21,570 bases of DNA from Candidatus Micrarchaeota archaeon (GCA_040754495.1 JBFMCO010000007.1:1-21570); one strand, 5' to 3'; shown: positions 1,750 to 20,556, numbered from the stretch's first letter. Made by a program: numbers and translations. The notes: generated by a model from the letters alone, not told the origin.

Positions 1750-1915
1750 GGTTCATCCCCGGGGCGTAATCCTTTCTGCTCGTCGCCGCCTTTTGCAGCC
1801 CCCGGCGAACCGGGCTTCTTCCACCTTCGGGGCTTTCGGACCCGGCAAGGGCCGTGGCCGGTGGGGTAGCACTCGCCCGGCCGGGGCTGGGCGATGCGGT
1901 TTCCGGGGATGAACC
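1750..1915. ncRNA. Unassigned GC-rich structured element (candidate ncRNA or MITE-like)
   Basis: A perfect 13-bp closing inverted repeat (GGTTCATCCCCGG 1750-1762 / CCGGGGATGAACC 1903-1915) encloses several internal helices. It is fully intergenic, and no family was recognised. Confidence 0.5.
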
Positions 1916-1922
1916 ACACGTG

Positions 1923-1930
1923 AATATAAG
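1923..1930 (+). promoter_or_regulatory. Archaeal TATA-like box for the surface-protein gene
   Basis: AATATAAG ends 22 nt before ATG 1953. Confidence 0.5.
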
Positions 1931-1952
1931 ATATCCCATGATATTCCTAGCC

Positions 1953-4900
1953 ATGAAACCCGGAACGTTCGTTCTTTCCCTCCTGGCGTTTTTGTCAATC
2001 GGATTCGCGGTGCCGGTCTCGTCCTGCAGCGAGATAACTTCGCCTGGGACGTACGACCTCACATCAGATGTCAGCGGAGAGCCCTATCCGGTCTCGCTGC
2101 CGTATGGGGGGAACGCCTGCTTCAGGATCGATTCTTCAGACGTCATTCTCGACTGCCACGGATTCGACTTGGTGGGCACGTATGTATACGGCAACTCATA
2201 CGGGGTCGCCGTAGAATCCCCCCTTTCGAATGTGGAGATACGGAACTGCGACATAACCCAATACGTATATGGAATTTTCTCAGACGTTTCCACGTCCTTG
2301 GTCGTGACGAACAACTCCATCCACGACAATCAAATCGGAGCCCAGCTGGAATCCTGTTCCAACTGCAGCGTGGAGGGCAACACTTTCCTTGACAATATCG
2401 GCAACAACCAGATATACGCGGAGCACGGGTCTGGAAACAACTTCACTGCAAACAGCATAACCCTTTCAACCCCTTCGGCATGGGCTGACGGGATGCAGTT
2501 TTATGACGAGTCATTCGACATCGTCCTCCTTAACAACATTAGTTTCATGGGCAGGGGCATCAATGTCAATTCCGCCTGCAGTAACATGACCTTCATCGGA
2601 AACAACGCCAGCAACAATTCACAGTATGGATTGGAGCTCGGGTTCAGCACAAACGGCACGGTCCGGGACAATCTTTTTCAGGATAACGGCCTCGTAGACA
2701 TATACCTTGTCGGACAGGACTGCTCAGATGTCATCGTAAATAACACAGGTTCCCGGGACATGCCGATATATTACAACAACAGCGCCGTCCTCCTCCAGGA
2801 CTCCGAGTTCTCGGAACTCATGCTGTGCGGCCATGGGGCGGACGGTTCCTCGCTCCAGAACGTCACGGTGCACGGCTCGGATAGCGTCTACAACAATGGG
2901 GCCTTCTTCAATAACGTGGATTATCTCGTGGTGAACAACTCCGAATCGTCCAACAACGCCTACGGTTTCCAGTGCTGGGGATGCAATTACGCTATATTCA
3001 CGAACGACACGGCCGACTACAATTACGCGCTCGAATACTACCAGCCCCGAGGCTTCGGATTCAGCATCGGCGACAGCCGGTATGGCTTTTTCGACAATCT
3101 CAGTGCATACGGGAACAACCAATATGGTTTCGTGATCCCGGACACCGATTCCGGTGGGCACACGGTGAGCAATTCTATTTTCCAGGAGAACCAGGAACTG
3201 GATTTCATGGCTTGGCCGACGTATCCGGAGTATTACTGCGATTATATTATAAGCAACATTACGGTTTCAGGCGACATGCCACTCGATTACTACAACGAAA
3301 GCGTGGTTCTCAGCGACATCACATCGCCGGAGATCCTGCTTTGCGGAACAGGCGCCAGCGGCTCGAACCTCACCAACATCACGCTGAGCGGCTCCCCGGA
3401 CGTGGGCAACAACGCCATAGTGCTCATGTTTGTCAACGATACCAGCATCAGCAATTCCGAATCGTCATGGAACTATTACGGCGTATATGCCTGGGGAGGA
3501 AAAAACATCGAGATATCCAACACGACCGCTTCATACAACGGCCTGGCGGGTTTCCAGATATATTATTCTGAGAATGCCCGCATCTTGGACAGCACCGCCG
3601 CAAGCGAACAGTACGGCGTGTACCTGAATGGTGCGGGCAACGCCACCGTAAGCAACAATACCATGCCCCTGGATTCATTCGGGGTGATGGCCGTTGGCGG
3701 ACCAAATACCACTATCATCAACAACAACATAACGGACAGCGGATATTCCATCATGCTGGGGTCGACTTCCGGAGGCAACGTTTCCGGGAATTCGATCGCC
3801 ACCGCGTACGGCTCGTGTATCTACGTCTATGACATAACCGGTGCCGGCATCTCCAATAACAGCGCCGACAACTGCTCGTCCTATGCCGGGGCATACGGCG
3901 CCATCTATCTCGGATATAACTCGAACGGCAACACCATCACGGATAATGCGCTCTCGGGAAGCAATTACGGCGTTTCGTTGGAGACTTATTTCACAGGGAA
4001 CAACAGCATCAGCCGGAACAGCATCCGCAACAACAGCGTCGGGGTCTATGCACAGTCTGGTGTGCACGACAATGACGTCTTCAACAACAGCATCGCCAAC
4101 AATTCCCAGTATGGCGTCTCGCTCAGCTACGCAGGGACGGGCAACCTCTTTCGCGGAAACGACATGGCCGGAAATCTCCTGCGCGGCTTCGACCTCGGAT
4201 ACAGCTCTGGCAACAACTTCACCGGGAATCGGATTTCCGGCTCCAGCTCCGGCTTTTCCATCGTCTCATCAAACCTTAACCATCTGTCCGGCAACGCCAT
4301 CGCTGACGTATGGACGGGGATAGATATATCCGCCGCATCTTCCGGCAACGTGCTCCAGTCGAGCAACATCACCCGGAGCAGCGCTTATGCCTTGTCGCTG
4401 TCGAATTCGGCCGGTACGAACATCTCTGACCTGCACTTCTACAACAACAGCATCGATATGAGGGTGCTGGGCCCCAATGTCACGTTCAACTCCTCTGGAG
4501 TCATATTCGACAACCCGTACGGAAATATCACCAATTATACGAACCTGTCTCTTTACGATTCCGCGGGACCTGAGGGCTACGTCCTTCTGTGGTCGCCAAG
4601 CCCGGCGCCCCTCCCGGAGAACCTGACCAGCTTCAACCAGAAATTCGTAGAGATATCAGCTTTCTCCGGGACGCCCACCCTAGACAGCCTCACCTGGCAC
4701 TGGGATGACTCCGAGCTCGCGGGATTCAACGAATCCAGGCTGGACCTCTGGGGGTATTCCTCCGGATGGTACAATGTCACGAGCGCGTCCCTTGATGAAG
4801 CCGCGAATGCCATTCATGTGACGGCCCTCGATCCAGCCAGCGTCTACGCCATCGTGCAGGATGAGCGGTTGTCCACGCCACCGCCAGAGGGGCCCCCAAG

Positions 4901-5900
4901 CGGGGATCAGGACAGGCGCGAAAGCCTCGATGCATCCGTCGATTCCTCCTGCGAGATGAACTCCGTAGAGGTCACCAGCGGCGATACCCCTGTTTCCGGC
5001 TCGCTGGTCATAGTTACAGACCGGAGCGGAAGCGTACTGGCATCAGGCTCCACGGACGGTTACGGAAGGTTCGGGTTCGGCGGCTGCGGAAAAAACGTTT
5101 CTTTGCATGCAAGCAAGTCCGGCTATCTGCCAGCCAGTGCCGAAGGGGCCCTGGTAAGCTGCTCGCAATGCGCTCTGCCTGAATGCTCTTCCGACAGCGA
5201 GTGCGATGCCGGACGCTGCAGCGACGGCAAGTGCACGGCCGGGCCGGGACCCGTGCCGCCCCCCGGACAGCAATGCACCGCGCCAGCATGCTGCGTTTCG
5301 GATTCGCAGTGCGCCGACAGCCAGGCCTGCCTCGGTGCCAATGATTCGGCCGGAACAAGCGCCTCGCCAGGCTCGTGCAAGGCATTGACCGGCTGCGGGC
5401 ATGTTGAAGGGCACAAGCTCGCCCCGTATGAATGCGGCCCTGAGGCAGGATGCCCGAGCTGCTCGGAGGGCTTCACCTGCGTGGAGCACAAGTGCGTGCA
5501 GAACGACATATCCTGCCCCACTACGGGCATAGTCGGCGACGAGAAGACCTGTGCTGCGACCGAGAACGGCCAGGCCTGCGCGAACTGCGACTTCGAGGTC
5601 ACCGACCCCTCGGGCAAGAAGTCCCGCGGAAGGACCGACGAGGAGGGCAACTTCAACCTGCCGCTCAACCTGGAGGGCACATACAAGGTGGCGCTGCTCA
5701 AGGACGGCAAGGTGATAAAGACCATAGATGTCAAGGCCTTCCCGCAGGCAGCCCCTGAGCAGCCCGAGAAGCCCCCGACGGCCGGCACAGACGCGTTCCC
5801 GCTCCTGTGGCTGGTGGTTCTGGTGCTCCTGGTCATGGGCGCAATTTTCTACTGGAGACGCCGGGGGCAGAAAAAGAAAGACACCGGAAAGAATGGATAG
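1953..5900 (+). CDS. Large cell-surface protein with NosD/parallel beta-helix repeats, Cys-rich and Ig-like modules and a C-terminal TM anchor
   Basis: It starts with a signal peptide (MKPGTFVLSLLAFLSIGFA). PbH1-like repeats follow (NNxIxxNxxGI-type) with many N-x-S/T sequons. Cys-rich CxxDxxC modules precede a hydrophobic helix (FPLLWLVVLVLLVMGAIFYW) and a basic tail (RRRGQKKK). Start 1953 (or 1938) is preferred over 1854. Confidence 0.88.
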   Translation: MKPGTFVLSLLAFLSIGFAVPVSSCSEITSPGTYDLTSDVSGEPYPVSLPYGGNACFRIDSSDVILDCHGFDLVGTYVYGNSYGVAVESPLSNVEIRNCDITQYVYGIFSDVSTSLVVTNNSIHDNQIGAQLESCSNCSVEGNTFLDNIGNNQIYAEHGSGNNFTANSITLSTPSAWADGMQFYDESFDIVLLNNISFMGRGINVNSACSNMTFIGNNASNNSQYGLELGFSTNGTVRDNLFQDNGLVDIYLVGQDCSDVIVNNTGSRDMPIYYNNSAVLLQDSEFSELMLCGHGADGSSLQNVTVHGSDSVYNNGAFFNNVDYLVVNNSESSNNAYGFQCWGCNYAIFTNDTADYNYALEYYQPRGFGFSIGDSRYGFFDNLSAYGNNQYGFVIPDTDSGGHTVSNSIFQENQELDFMAWPTYPEYYCDYIISNITVSGDMPLDYYNESVVLSDITSPEILLCGTGASGSNLTNITLSGSPDVGNNAIVLMFVNDTSISNSESSWNYYGVYAWGGKNIEISNTTASYNGLAGFQIYYSENARILDSTAASEQYGVYLNGAGNATVSNNTMPLDSFGVMAVGGPNTTIINNNITDSGYSIMLGSTSGGNVSGNSIATAYGSCIYVYDITGAGISNNSADNCSSYAGAYGAIYLGYNSNGNTITDNALSGSNYGVSLETYFTGNNSISRNSIRNNSVGVYAQSGVHDNDVFNNSIANNSQYGVSLSYAGTGNLFRGNDMAGNLLRGFDLGYSSGNNFTGNRISGSSSGFSIVSSNLNHLSGNAIADVWTGIDISAASSGNVLQSSNITRSSAYALSLSNSAGTNISDLHFYNNSIDMRVLGPNVTFNSSGVIFDNPYGNITNYTNLSLYDSAGPEGYVLLWSPSPAPLPENLTSFNQKFVEISAFSGTPTLDSLTWHWDDSELAGFNESRLDLWGYSSGWYNVTSASLDEAANAIHVTALDPASVYAIVQDERLSTPPPEGPPSGDQDRRESLDASVDSSCEMNSVEVTSGDTPVSGSLVIVTDRSGSVLASGSTDGYGRFGFGGCGKNVSLHASKSGYLPASAEGALVSCSQCALPECSSDSECDAGRCSDGKCTAGPGPVPPPGQQCTAPACCVSDSQCADSQACLGANDSAGTSASPGSCKALTGCGHVEGHKLAPYECGPEAGCPSCSEGFTCVEHKCVQNDISCPTTGIVGDEKTCAATENGQACANCDFEVTDPSGKKSRGRTDEEGNFNLPLNLEGTYKVALLKDGKVIKTIDVKAFPQAAPEQPEKPPTAGTDAFPLLWLVVLVLLVMGAIFYWRRRGQKKKDTGKNG
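2718..3482 (+). repeat. Internal ~172-aa tandem duplication within the beta-helix protein
   Basis: DCSDVIVNNTGSRDMPIYYNNSAVLLQDSEFSELMLCGHGADGSSLQNVTVHGS...NSESSNNAYG (from 2718) aligns with YCDYIISNITVSGDMPLDYYNESVVLSDITSPEILLCGTGASGSNLTNITLSGS...NSESSWNYYG (from 3234), an offset of 516 nt. Confidence 0.8.
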
Positions 5901-14589: not shown

Positions 14590-14603
14590 GCCATCGGTTG
14601 TGC

Positions 14604-15002
14604 ATGGACATCCCGCAACTGCTCAGGGAGGCGAGGACTATAGCGGTCGTCGGCTTATCAGACAAGCCCGAGAGGCCGAGCTACGACGTGGCGGAGTATC
14701 TCATGGGGCACGGATACACAATCATCCCCGTGAATCCGAACATCCATGAATGGAAAGGGCTGAAGGCGCATGCGTCGCTCCGGGACATTCCTGCGGGGGC
14801 GAAAGTGGATGTCGTAGACGTCTTCCGCAAGAGCGAGGACGTGCCGCCGGTCGTGGATGAGGCGATAAAGATAGGCGCAGGGGCTGTGTGGATGCAGCTT
14901 GGGATAGTGAACGAAGCGGCCGCGGAGAAGGCGCGGAAGGCGGGCCTCTTCGTGGTGATGGACCGCTGCATGAAAATCGAGCACATGAAACTCGGAAAGT
15001 GA
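14604..15002 (+). CDS. CoA-binding domain protein (YccU-like)
   Basis: Motifs: TIAVVGLSDKPERPSY, IIPVNP, DVVDVFRKSE, VWMQLGI, VVMDRCMKIEH. The true start is 14604 within the 14127 ORF. Confidence 0.92.
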   Translation: MDIPQLLREARTIAVVGLSDKPERPSYDVAEYLMGHGYTIIPVNPNIHEWKGLKAHASLRDIPAGAKVDVVDVFRKSEDVPPVVDEAIKIGAGAVWMQLGIVNEAAAEKARKAGLFVVMDRCMKIEHMKLGK

Positions 15003-15044: not shown

Positions 15045-17444
15045 ATGGCGGAGCTGGACATAGAATCCATAGGCCCGAAACTGAAGGGAATAAAGCTCAG
15101 CCAGCTCCAGCCGGAGCTTATCGACGCGGTCCTGGAGCTTGCCGGCGAGCACGGCTACGAAGTCACCATCACCTCTTCGAGCAACCTCGAGTTCCTGTTC
15201 AAGATTTACCAGGCCGAGAAGGCGAAGGAGAAGGGGAAGCGCAGGTCGCTTGAGAAAGCCGAGAATATCATCCTCACCATCGCTGGCGTCTTCTCGCTCC
15301 ACCACGACACCGTCATTGCGGAGCAGAAGGGGAAGCGGGAGGAGCGCAAGCGCAGGGCGCATTACGATGCGATGGGGGAGGACATGCGCCTCAGCAGGCG
15401 GATGCGCGAGCTTTTCGAATCCATAGGGATAGACAACGAGAAGGAGATGCAGCGCTCGGTTGCGCTTCTTGGCGAGGAAAAAATCGAGGAGCGGGTCGGG
15501 CTTGCGAGGGCGAGCAGGCTCGGAGATGCGCTTGTCCGGGGCGTTTTCGGGGAGAACCCGGAGCTGATTCGCATCGTGAGGGACGAGGAGTTCAGCGCGG
15601 CGCTCTCGGCGATGGAGGGCAAGAAGGATTTCATAGACGCGTGGAAGGAGGCGAACAGGAAGCTTCCCCTGTGGGCTGATTACAGCGTTTCCCCGAGCGT
15701 CCTGCTTGCTGATTACAAGGTGCTCCATGGCGGCCTCGGCGAGGCGGCCGTCCCGCTGGGGGGAAGTGCCTCGCACGGGGAGAAGACAGTCCCAGGAAGG
15801 CCGTCTGCAATCGAAGCCTCGGGCGGAGCAGCGAGGGCCGAAGTGCCGCAAAAAGAGCCGGACCTCGGCGCGCTCGACTCGCTCGCCCATCCGGCGGCGG
15901 CGCGGGCCAGGGAGGCGTACGAGAGGCACGGCGGGGGCGTCGAGGGGAAGCTTGCCGCGCTTGCGGAACTCGGGATAGACATATCCGAGCTGAGCACAGA
16001 GCGGGAGAGCATAAGCGAGGATACGGACCCGGAGAGCCGCTCGAAGGAGCAGGCGAAGTTCGATTCATCCATATCGCTCTTTTTCGGGATTGTGGTCGGC
16101 GGAGGCCTCCAGAATCTCCTTGGAAAGAGCCTCGGGGCCGATGACGCGAGGATTAGCAACGTGAAATACCTTCCCGGGGCGGCCGGCGCCTTCGAGCTGG
16201 AGCTTTCCGGCGGGAGCATGAAAAAGGCCTACCTGAGCCTCCAGGACATGGAGCCCGCGCAGATAGGCCGGGAGGCGGTCGTGGCCGCGGGCATGGCGGC
16301 TTATCGCATATGGACCAGGGGGGAGGACGGCGAGAGGCTGTCCGCAGGAGGCATGCAGTACGCAGTTTCCGAGGATGCGAGGGAGCTCGGGAGGCGCGGG
16401 AGGATTACGCTCAGGATGCCGGACCTGGGGAGCGAGAGCGTAGAGACCATGGGCGCAGCCATGTTCAGGGAGGACCTCGTGCTCAGGCCGGACCCCGGGA
16501 ACGACCTGCATTCGGAGTTTTACAGCGCGCTGGCCGAGCCCGGGGGGAGGGCCCGCGTCCTGAGGGCGCTCCTTGCTTATTTCGAGATGTCGAGAAGGGC
16601 CCTGCTTGCCGACCGCAGGCCGCCGAACACGTGCGTCCTCAGGGTGGCCGGGGCAGGGGGGACGGCGTTCACGTTCCAGCCTACCGACCTTGACGGTGTG
16701 GGGAACTTCATCGACGCGGGCCCTGCCGGGGCCGACTTTTCGGACTTCAACAGGGACTTCCACAAGGCGGCCGCGGATTTCGCGCTCCAGATGCAGGAGG
16801 GGATGACGAGGGCGGCCGCGAGGGGCATCATCAGGAGGGAGGACGTGCCGCCGGCCGGAATGATATTCCGGGAGATATCGGATGCGGCGCGGGAGCCTTT
16901 CCCCCCGGACGGGCCGGAGAGGGTCGCGGAGAGGCGGGGGATATTCATCAGGCACGACGGGAACCCGATTGGCATCGGATTCGACGCCTCATCCGACGTC
17001 GGGCACACGATACCCTCCCACGGCGGGAGGAGCAGGATAGCAGGGCCTGACGGAAGGGTGCTGCTCGATGCCGCGAGGGCTGTCAGGACGGCCGCGGAAG
17101 CCGCGACTGATTCCGCACAGGAGGAATTCCTCTCCGGATTCGCGGCAGGCGGCCTCGCCCAGATGTCCAGGGCCCCGGCCAAGGCCGCGGAGATATGCAT
17201 GGCCATGTCAGAGGCGGAGGGCGCCGAGAAAGCAGAGAGGCTCGAGCGGCTCCGCAGGAGGAGCGGCGGGGAGATTGCCGCAGGGATTTATTCTTCCCCG
17301 GAGTTCACGGATTCCAGGGGCGACCTCAAGCTCCAGGTGGCCGAGAGGATGGCCAGGGAGATTATATTCGCCAGGGGCTTCGCCCTGCCCGCTGCCGGGG
17401 AGCGCGCGGCAAAGGCGCAATCTCATGACGAGCGCACGAAATAG
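15045..17444 (+). CDS. 799-aa protein: uncharacterised N-terminal domain (paralogous to 18014-18982) plus putative HipA/PI3K-like kinase-type region
   Basis: Long ORF with AATATAAA at 15015-15022. Residues 1-~224 align with the 18014 ORF. Later motifs are LPGAAGAF, ALLADRRPPN and FQPTDLD. The CDS is secure; the kinase call is tentative. Confidence 0.75.
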   Translation: MAELDIESIGPKLKGIKLSQLQPELIDAVLELAGEHGYEVTITSSSNLEFLFKIYQAEKAKEKGKRRSLEKAENIILTIAGVFSLHHDTVIAEQKGKREERKRRAHYDAMGEDMRLSRRMRELFESIGIDNEKEMQRSVALLGEEKIEERVGLARASRLGDALVRGVFGENPELIRIVRDEEFSAALSAMEGKKDFIDAWKEANRKLPLWADYSVSPSVLLADYKVLHGGLGEAAVPLGGSASHGEKTVPGRPSAIEASGGAARAEVPQKEPDLGALDSLAHPAAARAREAYERHGGGVEGKLAALAELGIDISELSTERESISEDTDPESRSKEQAKFDSSISLFFGIVVGGGLQNLLGKSLGADDARISNVKYLPGAAGAFELELSGGSMKKAYLSLQDMEPAQIGREAVVAAGMAAYRIWTRGEDGERLSAGGMQYAVSEDARELGRRGRITLRMPDLGSESVETMGAAMFREDLVLRPDPGNDLHSEFYSALAEPGGRARVLRALLAYFEMSRRALLADRRPPNTCVLRVAGAGGTAFTFQPTDLDGVGNFIDAGPAGADFSDFNRDFHKAAADFALQMQEGMTRAAARGIIRREDVPPAGMIFREISDAAREPFPPDGPERVAERRGIFIRHDGNPIGIGFDASSDVGHTIPSHGGRSRIAGPDGRVLLDAARAVRTAAEAATDSAQEEFLSGFAAGGLAQMSRAPAKAAEICMAMSEAEGAEKAERLERLRRRSGGEIAAGIYSSPEFTDSRGDLKLQVAERMAREIIFARGFALPAAGERAAKAQSHDERTK

Positions 17445-17448
17445 GCGC

Positions 17449-17913
17449 TCATATCAGCTTCTGGGTGTCCTCGCCGACCATCACGAATGCGAATTTCCTT
17501 CCTGATTTGCCGGCCTCGGAAGCGCCCCTCAGCGCGCTCCGGATGGATAGGCCCAGCGCATCCCAGTCCGCGGACGGGGCGGCAAGCGAGGAAACCGGAA
17601 CGCTCACCATGATTTTGCGCCTGCTGTCCACGAAAGTGCAGTAGAGCGAGCTGCCCTTCATGGAAAGGTCGATTGCGTAGGCCGGAGGCTTGTCCGGGAG
17701 CGGGAGGCCGAGGAAGAACGAGCCGCTCAGGGTTGATGCCGGGGTCTGGGGGTCGCTTGAGAACGAGATGCGCCTGCCGCCGCCTGCATCGTGCAGCCTG
17801 GGGGGGAGCGCAAGGAGCTTCATCGTGCCCTCGTCCATGGGCCCGAGCCTCGTCAGGGCGTGCAGCACCGACACCCGGCTCATTGCGGATTTTCCGCTTG
17901 ATTCCACCTGCAT
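17449..17913 (-). CDS. Hypothetical protein (154 aa)
   Basis: It fills the gap between the two paralogues. An AT-rich TTTTATT tract lies about 25 nt upstream on the minus strand (17936-17945). No family recognised. Confidence 0.55.
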   Translation of the reverse strand: MQVESSGKSAMSRVSVLHALTRLGPMDEGTMKLLALPPRLHDAGGGRRISFSSDPQTPASTLSGSFFLGLPLPDKPPAYAIDLSMKGSSLYCTFVDSRRKIMVSVPVSSLAAPSADWDALGLSIRSALRGASEAGKSGRKFAFVMVGEDTQKLI

Positions 17914-18013
17914 GCACCCATAGTTGTGCAGAGGCCAATAAAAAACATTAGGGAGGCATGGCCGCAGCGGGGCGTCCCGGAAACATTAAAATCCTCGACT
18001 GCGACATATTAGT

Positions 18014-18982
18014 ATGGACGTGGAAGCGCTTGCGCCGGCCCTCAGGAAGATGAAGGTGGGCGAGCTCGACCCGGAGCTCCGGAGCGAGATTGCCACACTT
18101 GCCCGGGAACTTGGCAGGGGCAGTGCGATAACCGCCTCCAGCAGCCTGCATTTCCTTCTGAAGCTTTACAGGGCGGAGAAGGCGAAGGAGAGGGGGAGGG
18201 AGAAGGCGCTGAAGAGGGCGGAGGAGCTGATTCTGCGGCTCTCCTCTTTACATCACGACATACAGAAGAGGGAAAGCGAAAGGAGGAGGGAGGAGAGGGG
18301 GAGGCGCATCCCGTTTCCCGCCATCCGGGAAAGCGTGATTGTGAGCGGGAAGCTCCGGGAGATGTTCGGGTCCATCGGCATTACCGACGAGGGCGTCATG
18401 GGCAGGGCGGTCGAGCTCCTGGGGGAGGAGAGAGCCGGGGAGAGGGTAGACATGGTGAAGCTCATGGACATCGGACCGGAGCTCACGAAGAGGCTTTTCT
18501 CCGAACACCCGGATACTGTGCTCATACCCAAGGAAGACGACTTCGTCTCCGAACTCGAAGCCATCGAGGCGAAAAAGGGGATGATAGACTCCTGGAGGGA
18601 GGCGAACGGCCGCGAGCCTCCGATGTGGGCTGATTACGACAAGACGCCCGGCATACTCGTGGACACGTACGAGGACATCACGCGGCTGCTGAACCTCGAG
18701 CCGCCTGAGACGGCCGGGGCTGAACAGAAGGAGGCCAGATACCGCGGCAAGCCCATGGACCCGGACGATTTCTCGAGAGTCGTGATGGCCATGGGATTCA
18801 GCGGGGTGAGGGAATCCAAGCACGGAAGGATTCTCAGCGACGGGAAGGGCAATATAATGTGCGTGCAGAGGGCGCACAGGAAGCAGGAGCAGCTCAACCC
18901 GAGCACGATAAAGAAGAAGCTCACAGAGGCCGGCGTGGACCTGGATGAGTTCGAGAAGAAGAGAAGGGAGCTGAAACTGTGA
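18014..18982 (+). CDS. Uncharacterised N-terminal domain fused to a C-terminal HicA-like mRNA-interferase domain
   Basis: The last ~78 aa read PMDPDDFSRVVMAMGFSGVRESKHGRIL...MCVQRAH...LNPSTIKKKLTEAGVDLDEF. This fits the HicA pattern GF..R..GSH...VP.H...L..gTl..IL..AG. A HicB-like gene follows, and ATTAAAAT at 17985-17992 lies upstream. Confidence 0.75.
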   Translation: MDVEALAPALRKMKVGELDPELRSEIATLARELGRGSAITASSSLHFLLKLYRAEKAKERGREKALKRAEELILRLSSLHHDIQKRESERRREERGRRIPFPAIRESVIVSGKLREMFGSIGITDEGVMGRAVELLGEERAGERVDMVKLMDIGPELTKRLFSEHPDTVLIPKEDDFVSELEAIEAKKGMIDSWREANGREPPMWADYDKTPGILVDTYEDITRLLNLEPPETAGAEQKEARYRGKPMDPDDFSRVVMAMGFSGVRESKHGRILSDGKGNIMCVQRAHRKQEQLNPSTIKKKLTEAGVDLDEFEKKRRELKL

Positions 18983-18995
18983 AGGAGGGAAGCGG

Positions 18996-19235
18996 ATGAA
19001 GGAAATAGAAGTGGAAGGATATACGGTCACGATAGAGAGGGCTTTCGGGAGGTTCGTCGTCTCAGTCCCCAAGCTGCCCGGATGCACGGTGCAGGTGGAC
19101 AGGGAGGAGGACGCGGGGAGGGAAATCCGGAAGCAGATGGGGATGTACTTCTCCGAGCTGGCCTCGAAGAAGCCAAAAGAGAAGCCAGGCGGGGATGAGC
19201 GGAGCACGAGGGCGACCGTGAAAATCAGGAAGTGA
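18996..19235 (+). CDS. hicB: HicB-like antitoxin (RNase H-like fold, no obvious HTH/RHH)
   Basis: Reads YTVTIERAFGRFVVSVPKLPGCTVQVDREEDAGREIRKQMGMYF, matching the HicB V.VP.LPGC motif. A GGAGG Shine-Dalgarno lies upstream. Confidence 0.82.
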   Translation: MKEIEVEGYTVTIERAFGRFVVSVPKLPGCTVQVDREEDAGREIRKQMGMYFSELASKKPKEKPGGDERSTRATVKIRK

Positions 19236-19239
19236 TGCG

Positions 19240-19803
19240 ATGGTCCTCGCGCCATCGAGCTACAAGGTGCTGCATAAGGGGAGCCCTGCGCCGGAATTCA
19301 GGCTGAAGGGCATCGACGGCAAGGAGCATAGCCTCGCGGAATTCAAGGGGAAAAAAGCCCTGCTCGTAATTTTCATGTGCAACCACTGCCCGTACGTCCA
19401 GCCCAAGATGCCGTATTTCGCAGAGCTGCAGAGGAGATACGGGCCTCTGGGCCTGCAGGTTGTCGGCATCAACTCCAACGACGCGAGGAAATACCCGGAA
19501 GACGGCCCGGAGAAGATGGCGCAATACGCTGCGAGGTTCGGGTTCGGCTTCCCGTATCTTGTCGATGAGGCGCAGGAAGCGGCGAGGGCGTATGGCGCCG
19601 AGTGCACGCCCGACCCGTTCCTGTTCGATAGCTCGCTCGCGCTCGCCTACCATGGAAGGTTCGACGATGCGCATGGCCGGCCGCATTCGGATGGCAAGAC
19701 CGCGGAGATGGAGGAGGCCATAAAGCAGGTGCTCTCAGGAGCCGCGGTCACCGTGGAGACGCTGCCCTCGATGGGATGCAGCATCAAGTGGAAGGGCAGG
19801 TGA
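19240..19803 (+). CDS. AhpC/TSA-redoxin (thioredoxin-fold) family protein
   Basis: Motifs: APEFRLKGIDGKEHSL, FMCNHCPYV, GINSND, FPYLVDEAQEAARAYGAECTPDPFLF, YHGRFDD, MGCSIKW. Confidence 0.92.
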   Translation: MVLAPSSYKVLHKGSPAPEFRLKGIDGKEHSLAEFKGKKALLVIFMCNHCPYVQPKMPYFAELQRRYGPLGLQVVGINSNDARKYPEDGPEKMAQYAARFGFGFPYLVDEAQEAARAYGAECTPDPFLFDSSLALAYHGRFDDAHGRPHSDGKTAEMEEAIKQVLSGAAVTVETLPSMGCSIKWKGR

Positions 19804-19836: not shown

Positions 19837-20556
19837 ATGACTGACGCACAGCCCAGCCTGAGGCAGACTCCGGTGCCCGATAGAGCCAGGGCTGCGAATG
19901 GCAAGTCCTATATCCGGCGCCTCATTCCGGGCATGGACAGGTGGATGAGCAGGCGCGAGCTGAGGGCCGGGCTTCTTGCGGAGTCCATGGAGCTGGAAGG
20001 CCGGGCGGAGGCATGGGAGAGGCGCGGCCACTGGGAGATGGCTGCCAAATGCACGGAGATGGCGGCCGAGCCGGTGAGGAAGCTTCTGGACATCGAACTG
20101 CGCAGGGAGTTCATGGACAGGTACGCTCAGCTTCTCAAGGACGCGACGGTCAGGTATTCCCTGGAACTCGGCGAAGCCGCGAGATACGACCCTGCGATTT
20201 TCTTCAGGATGTCGAAGCTGGCCGCAAGGATGGGGGATGTCGCGAGGACGAGGACGAATTACGAGCGGATGCTGAAGGGATTCGAGCTGATGGTAAGCGA
20301 CCCGATGCTGGACAGCCTAGTCACGCTCAACAGGATGAAGAGGAGATTCCTTGCAGCCCTCTGGGAAGGCGGGCAGGACGAGGCATGCAGGCTCGCCGCT
20401 AATGCGCTCGAGGCTGCTGCAATGGTGAGGGCGCCGGGGACGGACAGGCGCCCTGACACGGCGCGGTGGCTCGAGAGGCAGTTCGAGGAGAGATACGGGG
20501 ACGCGTATCCGCTGCGGTGCGCGCTCTATGGCGGGAGCGTAGTCAGCCGTCCATGA
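19837..20556 (+). CDS. Hypothetical, mostly helical protein (239 aa)
   Basis: TTTTTAA at 19807-19813 lies upstream, and codon usage is GC-rich like its neighbours. No family recognised. Confidence 0.6.
   Translation: MTDAQPSLRQTPVPDRARAANGKSYIRRLIPGMDRWMSRRELRAGLLAESMELEGRAEAWERRGHWEMAAKCTEMAAEPVRKLLDIELRREFMDRYAQLLKDATVRYSLELGEAARYDPAIFFRMSKLAARMGDVARTRTNYERMLKGFELMVSDPMLDSLVTLNRMKRRFLAALWEGGQDEACRLAANALEAAAMVRAPGTDRRPDTARWLERQFEERYGDAYPLRCALYGGSVVSRP

Follow-up and report, generated by a model that had tools for sequence, protein, structure and literature searches.

A hicAB-like module and a kinase-like paralogue share an undescribed N-terminal domain in Micrarchaeota

Micrarchaeota are tiny symbiotic archaea. 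The stretch of DNA analysed here (the window) comprises 21,570 nucleotides from a Candidatus Micrarchaeota archaeon (GCA_040754495.1 JBFMCO010000007.1:1-21570; contig C7 of a genome of 1.63 Mb that is 80% complete). It contains a module of four genes: a long gene (P0001), a short paralogue (P0002), a small hicB-like gene (P0003), and a conserved orphan gene that lies between the two paralogues on the opposite strand (Table 1). The long and short proteins begin with the same helical domain (the N-domain) and continue into different C-terminal domains, a divergent protein-kinase-like (PKL) fold in the first and a HicA domain in the second. The module is a new version of the hicAB theme in which the N-domain and the orphan represent protein families not described before. 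The region is best read as two related two-gene units that are inherited vertically in one Micrarchaeota family. An initial annotation of the region, made from the sequence, had listed the three open reading frames (ORFs) on the plus strand correctly and overlooked the conserved gene on the minus strand.

Two neighbouring proteins share an N-terminal domain

Comparison of the N-domains of the long and short proteins by BLASTP gave 95/223 identities (43%) and 68% positives with an E value of 2e-49 (residues 4-225 against residues 1-220), a similarity that, judged from this alignment, is far beyond chance. The two ORFs are thus paralogues over their first ~220 aa, as the initial annotation had proposed, and every motif that it quoted is present. 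The source genome holds the N-domain in exactly two copies. In AlphaFold2 (AF2) models the N part is all-helical. Its two halves are termed N1 (about residues 5-90) and N2 (about residues 110-225). It is followed by a linker of low confidence (predicted local distance difference test (pLDDT) <50) that spans residues 234-270 in the long protein and 229-239 in the short protein. Beyond this linker the paralogues diverge into different C-terminal domains, again in agreement with the earlier description.

The N-domain had no match in Pfam, NCBIfam or PADLOC, and profile searches of the PDB returned nothing below E 0.2. Comparison of the N part by Foldseek, VIA-align and Atlas gave nothing above Z 6 or a TM-score of 0.35. 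One match of N1 to the RNA-binding domain of ZCCHC3 (E 1e-4) was taken as chance because it was found in only 1/14 N1 sequences. The suggestion that the shared domain belongs to no known family was therefore borne out, and this 225-residue helical domain is a previously undescribed family. Complex prediction with the N-domains of the two families (residues 1-232 for the long and 1-228 for the short family) gave a score of 0.00, which speaks neither for nor against binding between them.

The short protein ends in a HicA domain and is followed by a HicB-like protein

The short protein ends in a real HicA-family domain. In the alignment-based AF2 model (pLDDT 80.5), the C-terminal domain has an alpha-beta-beta-beta-alpha order, with helices at residues 250-259 and 296-305 and strands at 263-267, 271-275 and 281-285. 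An unbiased fold search against 48,161 PDB chains placed HicA structures at ranks 1-4 (1whz, Z 10.3 with 1.8 A root-mean-square deviation (rmsd) over 70 aa; 6g26_E, Z 7.8; 5yrz_D, Z 7.3; 4p78_D, Z 7.1). Foldseek was concordant with this fold, and the Atlas shape search returned a HicA cluster at a TM-score of 0.79. The profile of the C-terminal family (A7) matched the HicA prototype 1whz with E 3.4e-6, and in it H270 is aligned to the histidine of the 'GGH' motif of 1whz and H288 to the second conserved His. Among 29 short-form sequences, H270 is kept in at least 90% and H288 in all. Conservation is high (59% mean column identity). The full short-form architecture was found in about 30 homologue clusters of 310-334 aa, 4 of which carry the Pfam HicA domain PF07927. 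In S. pneumoniae, HicA requires its active-site histidine for RNase activity, and HicB covers that residue (PMC6159526). RNase activity is likewise predicted for the HicA domain described here.

A HicB-like gene is located directly downstream of the short form in 13/13 loci and often overlaps the upstream gene; in the window its ORF starts 13 nt after the short gene and is preceded by GGAGG. Both the HicA-like end and the hicB neighbour had been called in the initial annotation; the HicA call holds, and the HicB call probably does. The protein has a V-EGY...VP-LPGC core that includes the LPGC motif. Eleven of the 13 family members match PF15919 (HicB_lk) below its curated cut-off, the best with E 7.9e-5. 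The best PDB match of the family profile is the HicB-like structure 2yzt (E 4.4e-3), and the HicB structures 6g1c and 6g1n follow at E about 0.2. No ribbon-helix-helix (RHH) or helix-turn-helix (HTH) domain was detected, and past the HicB domain there is only a basic tail rich in Lys and Arg. Because P0003 has just 79 aa and only this tail after the HicB domain, it fits the small HicB of class 1 systems. By analogy, it would inhibit the RNase of its HicA partner.

The long protein carries a divergent kinase-like domain and has its own small neighbour

The C-terminal part of the long form is common to 11 homologue clusters (734-875 aa), all from Micrarchaeota or unnamed. The AF2 model of the long protein has a mean pLDDT of 79.6, with values >90 over much of residues 400-780. 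An unbiased fold search with this model returned PKL enzymes in 50/50 top rows, with 230-290 aligned residues at an rmsd of 4.6-7.9 A. The scores included Z 9.6 for PI4KIIIb and PI3KC2a, 9.5 for Vps34 and 9.3 for CotH. The 50 rows also comprised actin-fragmin kinase, LanM kinase domains, Tel1, Bud32, aminoglycoside and macrolide phosphotransferases, and Rio1. VIA-align aligned 255-285 residues with the catalytic domains of PI3K, PI4K and Vps34 (Z 9.5-10.3, rmsd 5-8 A).

Several motifs are invariant among 12 kinase-form proteins: a Gly-rich loop (YLxGAxGAFE), YLxLQDMEPA, SEDAR, LLxDRRxxNT, FTFQPTDxDGxGNFI and IGIGFDA. At the level of single residues, D523, R524, R525, N528, D548, D550 and G551 are identical in 12/12 sequences, and the DRRxxN and DxDG motifs bracket two strands (529-536 and 539-546) in a kinase-like arrangement in the AF2 model. 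The structure matches and these motifs on either side of the two strands support a divergent PKL fold of PI3K/PI4K/CotH-like type with a probably active centre, and the long protein is a predicted kinase. Its named relatives are the atypical PKL enzymes (PI3K/PI4K, CotH, actin-fragmin kinase and aminoglycoside phosphotransferases), with which it has in common a bilobal fold, a Gly-rich loop, a D-x-x-x-x-N loop, two strands and a D-x-G metal-binding motif. It differs from them in its identity of only 7-11%, in Z scores that do not exceed about 10, in a Lys or Arg at the beta-3 position, and in its extra invariant motifs.

The kinase-like fold was correctly recognized in the initial annotation, but the link made there to the HipA toxins was not sustained. 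The long protein resembles the HipA/HipB system in that a kinase-superfamily enzyme, of PI3K/PI4K-like flavour, is accompanied by a small dedicated neighbour gene. However, neither the whole protein nor residues 330-799 matched HipA in Pfam or NCBIfam, even at E 10. HipA (4pu4_B) was found by Foldseek only, with E 0.02; none of the 50 rows listed by the unbiased search is HipA. The protein also differs from HipA in its 300-aa N-terminal extension. A HipB-type neighbour was not found either: the upstream gene encodes a CoA_binding_2 protein, and the sole dedicated neighbour is the convergent orphan, which has no HTH match. The HipA family assignment was therefore rejected. Toxin status of the long-form kinase is not supported.

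Homologues of the orphan (33-47% identity) directly follow the kinase-form gene in 7/7 loci examined (the window, L003/G157, L019/G307, the contig encoding P0039, G305, L017/G244 and L018). The orphan is absent from the GGDEF-form locus L001 described below, and from L040, which resamples the same contig. The family consists of 18 clusters, all unnamed, and has no Pfam or PDB match; a 98%-identical relative of the window's protein was called at 129 aa. The orphan and kinase genes are convergent, and the orphan and N-HicA genes are divergent, with a 100-nt spacer between the latter two. The spacer contains TATA-like boxes at 17938-17947 on the minus strand (for the orphan) and at about 17984-17992 (for N-HicA), which may serve as promoters.

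The long gene arose by duplication of an N-HicA gene

An exhaustive hidden Markov model (HMM) search of 1.84 billion representative proteins found the N-domain in only 55 clusters, almost all from one Micrarchaeota family. Domain mapping assigned about 45 N-domain proteins to the N-HicA form, 14 to the N-kinase form and 2 to an N-GGDEF-like form, in addition to singletons. The two GGDEF-like proteins, P0090 (L001:3655-5964) and P0045, match GGDEF in Pfam with E 7e-3 and by Atlas features with 0.95, and the ten listed rows of the Atlas structure search are all GGDEF-family clusters at TM-scores of 0.30-0.39. Their GGDEF-like domain (TGD...NQLFG..GD...RGEGGEV) occupies the position of the kinase and follows a remnant of a HicA domain that lacks the histidines. 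Such a collinear His-less remnant between the N-domain and the enzyme domain was detected in 7 long forms; in P0001 it has been lost. In an IQ-TREE phylogeny of 79 N-domains (a quick search, with a careful search unfinished), all 16 long forms group in one clade (SH-aLRT 99) that is nested among short forms. This nesting and the His-less remnants show that the long gene is a duplicate of an N-HicA gene that lost its RNase and captured a kinase or GGDEF-like domain. The view of the locus as one scaffold carrying two effectors, advanced in the initial annotation, is thus better replaced by that of one ancestral N-HicA gene that was duplicated, with the RNase residues lost and an enzyme domain acquired in the second copy.

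Fusions beyond the two in the window, which the initial annotation had recommended cataloguing, combine the N-domain or one of its halves with GGDEF-like, HD-like, sigma-70 r2/r4, carbonic anhydrase and ankyrin sequences. In other Micrarchaeota, N1 alone makes up the first ~90 residues of beta-carbonic anhydrases, of a protein with ankyrin repeats and of one with 1657 aa (L028, L030 and L031 as whole loci; P0089, which joins N1 to a carbonic anhydrase; L032:238-1767; L035:88-5058). Since N1 alone heads such proteins, these fusions point to a general role (regulatory, docking or targeting) of N1 or the N-domain rather than a toxin-specific one.

One such role would be that of a localisation or delivery tag, above all for N1, on extracellular or host-directed proteins of an episymbiont, with HicB and the orphan conferring self-protection (immunity), in the manner of polymorphic toxin systems. 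The diverse cargo headed by N1 in Micrarchaeota (HicA, kinase, GGDEF-like, beta-carbonic anhydrase, ankyrin-repeat and 1657-aa proteins) and the separate small neighbour of each enzymatic form are in keeping with this proposal. We nevertheless consider it very improbable, given that N1 has no signal peptide or transmembrane segment and is highly charged, that architectures are few with no hypervariable C-termini among close relatives, that no secretion genes lie nearby, and that a carbonic anhydrase is no obvious effector.

Three other singletons were recorded. P0068 (1180 aa) has the N-domain at residues 1-192, almost identical to the N part of P0030, after which come an extended helical stretch and an HD-like motif (H...LLHDIGYG); it has no Pfam match. 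P0082 (929 aa, from an 11.5-kb Logan contig) combines two copies of N2 with a transmembrane region and a HicA-like end; its gene occupies the same site after the CoA_binding_2 gene and is followed by an 82-aa gene. P0085 (410 aa, from a 2.3-kb ENA contig) is a sigma-70 r2/r4 protein with an N2 half at residues 43-133 (57 bits). In an archaeon, a factor of the sigma-70 type would be unusual.

The module occupies a fixed chromosomal site in one Micrarchaeota family

Relatives are labelled Micrarchaeota, Micrarchaeia or 'Bilamarchaeum' by their sources. In a sample of the phylum the module was present in 27/301 genomes, nearly all of one family, and it was therefore rejected as a phylum-wide core housekeeping gene. 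A larger profile matched 45/99 genomes of the family and 23/39 of the genus, some of these matches being N1-only proteins. The module sits at a fixed site between the CoA_binding_2 gene and a gene for AhpC or an FAD oxidoreductase, in loci with proteins that are 36-56% identical, and CoA_binding_2 is directly upstream in nearly all of them. The AhpC gene begins 4 nt past the hicB-like gene in the window, and a gap of 1-4 nt recurs in L001, L003, L019 and the P0039 contig; AhpC is not adjacent in L007-L010. An empty site is present in L027 (G089:C15, 8212-9480), where an ATP-cone gene and a CoA-binding gene are followed by AhpC after 57 nt; this genome belongs to the same genus and is 94% complete. 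The GC content of the module equals that of its flanks. No relatives were found among 50,697 phage records, 72,556 plasmids and the IMG/VR contigs, and a mobile-element origin was rejected on these grounds. The module is not flanked by integrase or defence genes, and none of the four proteins or their parts matched PADLOC-DB 2.0 at E 1.

The window, G157, G305, G306, G307 and the P0039 contig all have the long form next to the short form, which makes at least six genomes or contigs and confirms that the genes co-occur elsewhere. The two genes are separable: most genomes have the short form alone, in G244 the units lie on separate contigs, and at two loci (L017 and L018) the long form occurs and the short one is missing. 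L018 retains a HicB-like gene after the orphan.

The distribution bears on two interpretations that differ from ours. According to the first, the HicA-like domain and its HicB-like partner are a non-toxic, lineage-specific housekeeping or regulatory unit for RNA binding or RNA processing that is co-expressed with thiol-redox genes (CoA-binding, peroxiredoxin and FAD-disulfide-reductase-type) and serves thiol-redox homeostasis. The fixed synteny in divergent genomes with 1-4 nt gaps to AhpC, the strong sequence conservation of the HicA part, the GC content, and the lack of mobile elements and defence matches are all compatible with such a unit. We regard it as unlikely, however, since only about half of the genomes in the genus and 45/99 in the family have the module, the clean empty site occurs in a 94%-complete genome of the same genus, and a core function would not be lost so often. 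In addition, the catalytic-type His is retained, the partner is strictly of the HicB type, and AhpC is not always the neighbour, as in L007-L010.

The second interpretation is a two-protein antiviral (abortive-infection) system, in which the kinase or GGDEF-like paralogue would sense infection and release HicA from HicB by homotypic N-domain contact, phosphorylation or a nucleotide signal. The adjacency of long and short forms in at least six genomes or contigs, the kinase/GGDEF-like swap at one position, and the patchy distribution with an empty site would agree with this idea, as would the presence of HicA domains in many defence-type contexts (PMC10865869) and the paired-adaptor logic known from bacterial conflict systems (PMC7159879). 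It is difficult to reconcile with genomes that have the short form alone, which are the majority, with units that also occur apart, with the constancy of the chromosomal site, and with the lack of PADLOC matches, defence-island neighbours and phage, plasmid or viral relatives. An antiviral role, raised in the initial annotation, finds no support here and is quite unlikely in our view.

A model for the two units

To the interpretation that we prefer, we assign about an even chance: a small HicB restrains a HicA RNase, the N-domain contributes regulation or partner binding, and a separable kinase-orphan pair of shared ancestry lies alongside. Unit 1 (18014-19235) would be a class 1-like hicA-hicB pair in which HicA keeps its catalytic-type histidine and is tethered to the N-domain. 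HicB would block the RNase site as in solved HicAB complexes, and the N-domain may provide the regulation or partner binding for which canonical HicB has its DNA-binding domain. The RNase would then be released only under a particular signal, such as stress or infection; stress would fit the likely operon of Unit 1 with the peroxiredoxin gene. Unit 2 (15045-17913) is the N-HicA duplicate, in which the HicA part degenerated, to a His-less remnant in relatives and to complete loss in the window, and an atypical PKL enzyme with an intact catalytic loop was gained. The convergent 130-154-aa orphan that always accompanies it could be a regulator, a substrate or an antidote. Coupling of Units 1 and 2 via their shared N-domain is possible.

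Several observations weigh against this model. The module is highly conserved and sits at a fixed chromosomal site beside housekeeping-type genes, whereas typical toxin-antitoxin pairs are mobile and fast-evolving; because of this conservation and fixed site, a domesticated or non-toxic role fits equally well. The window's own HicA domain has no Pfam match even at E 10, and P0003's own match to PF15919 (E 2.3e-3, 18.5 bits) falls below the curated cut-off of 27. Binding of a partner by the N-domain is a supposition of the model. The chemistry of the PKL domain may not be phosphotransfer, since the beta-3 position (before YLxLQD) is occupied by Lys or Arg among the 12 kinase-form sequences rather than by a strict Lys. 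Finally, the functions given here are predictions for every member of the module.

A bolder version is that the N-domain is a new signal-input or adaptor domain of DPANN archaea through which an atypical kinase or a GGDEF-like cyclase controls the HicB-held HicA, with N1 as a docking tag. We think this improbable. If true, the two proteins would constitute a signal-gated growth-arrest or abortive-infection switch without a described counterpart, and N1 would have been put to further use as an all-purpose docking tag for carbonic anhydrases, ankyrin proteins and giant proteins.

Relation to known systems

In class 1 hicAB loci, which are common in archaea, hicA is followed by a small HicB without a DNA-binding domain (Gerdes 2024, mBio, PMC10865869), and Unit 1 shares this organization. 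It differs in that HicA makes up the C-terminal third of a 322-aa protein with a 225-aa N-domain, an arrangement found in none of the 14 genetic contexts in which HicA domains have been catalogued (PMC10865869). The module is also chromosomally fixed and strongly conserved, with a kinase-bearing paralogue upstream. Further parallels among those contexts are the class 6 HicA 'Shared Domain' proteins and the class 14 SMC-HicA proteins. There too HicA's double-stranded RNA-binding domain (dsRBD) is joined to an additional helical domain which another family of enzymes also carries and which has been assigned a putative role in external interactions. The class 6 Shared Domain, however, is a C-terminal three-helix unit of 55-60 aa common to RelE, and SMC-HicA has a coiled-coil ATPase (PMC10865869), whereas the extra domain described here is N-terminal, 225 aa long, unrelated in sequence, and present on a kinase or GGDEF-like paralogue.

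The organization is also reminiscent of effector-associated (adaptor) domains, in that two adjacent genes whose enzymatic ends differ begin with one and the same non-catalytic domain. In bacterial conflict systems, such shared adaptor domains signal homotypic coupling (Kaur et al. 2020, eLife, PMC7159879). Unlike those systems, the module has no NTPase core, is found in an archaeal DPANN host with only two copies per genome, and any coupling of its proteins is conjectural.

The module would add a further context to those of HicA, the first with this N-terminal domain, in DPANN archaea, for which almost nothing is known of toxin-antitoxin or defence biology. The history of the locus can be traced, from duplication of a toxin gene through decay of the RNase to capture of a kinase or GGDEF-like domain at the same site. 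A small partner of its own accompanies each form, and the variants provide a natural construct series for how extra domains regulate a HicA RNase. The N-domain (55 clusters) and the orphan (18 clusters) are unannotated families and candidates for family databases. The impact is limited by the narrow host range of one Micrarchaeota family.

Features of the module and its neighbours

Table 1. Coordinates of the module and its immediate flanks in the window.
Feature	Position	Strand	Basis or remark
CoA_binding_2 gene	14598..15002	+	Pfam E 3.6e-43; conserved upstream flank, context only
Long paralogue P0001, 799 aa (shared N-domain, disordered linker, PKL domain)	15045..17444	+	ORF and translation
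Shared N-domain of long paralogue, residues 1-230, all-helical	15045..15734	+	43% identity to short paralogue; profile match 1.4e-133
PKL-fold domain, residues about 300-780 of long paralogue	15942..17384	+	Structure comparison
Catalytic-loop-like motif DRRPPN (D523-N528), long paralogue	16611..16628	+	Invariant residues in 12 kinase-form proteins
DFG-like motif D548-L-D550-G551, long paralogue	16686..16697	+	Invariant in 12/12 kinase-form proteins
Conserved orphan gene, 154 aa	17449..17913	-	Homologues after every kinase-form gene examined
Divergent intergenic region	17914..18013	.	TATA-like boxes on both strands, read from sequence
Short paralogue P0002, 322 aa (shared N-domain, linker, HicA domain)	18014..18982	+	ORF
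Shared N-domain of short paralogue, residues 1-225	18014..18688	+	BLASTP to long paralogue and profile
HicA-family dsRBD-like domain, residues 244-322	18743..18979	+	Fold and profile; H270 at 18821-18823, H288 at 18875-18877
HicB-like small protein P0003, 79 aa	18996..19235	+	PF15919 sub-threshold; after short form in 13/13 loci
AhpC/Redoxin peroxiredoxin	19240..19803	+	Pfam E 1.6e-23; context, likely operon neighbour, not proven part

Downstream of AhpC, a 239-aa ORF (19837-20556) without a Pfam match is kept in L019 and G305 (46-50% identity), and genes of 212-232 aa occupy its position in L001 and L003. Two further regions of the window lie upstream of the module. A Polbeta/NTP_transf_2 nucleotidyltransferase gene (614-1264) overlaps by 4 nt a 132-aa ORF (1261-1659) that has no Pfam match. 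The pair is located in a low-GC stretch (0.41) and looks like a minimal toxin-antitoxin-type pair of the nucleotidyltransferase kind. Positions 1854-5900 encode a protein of 1348 aa that has right-handed beta-helix/NosD repeats, a CarboxypepD_reg domain and a transmembrane-like C-terminal end and is probably a surface protein.

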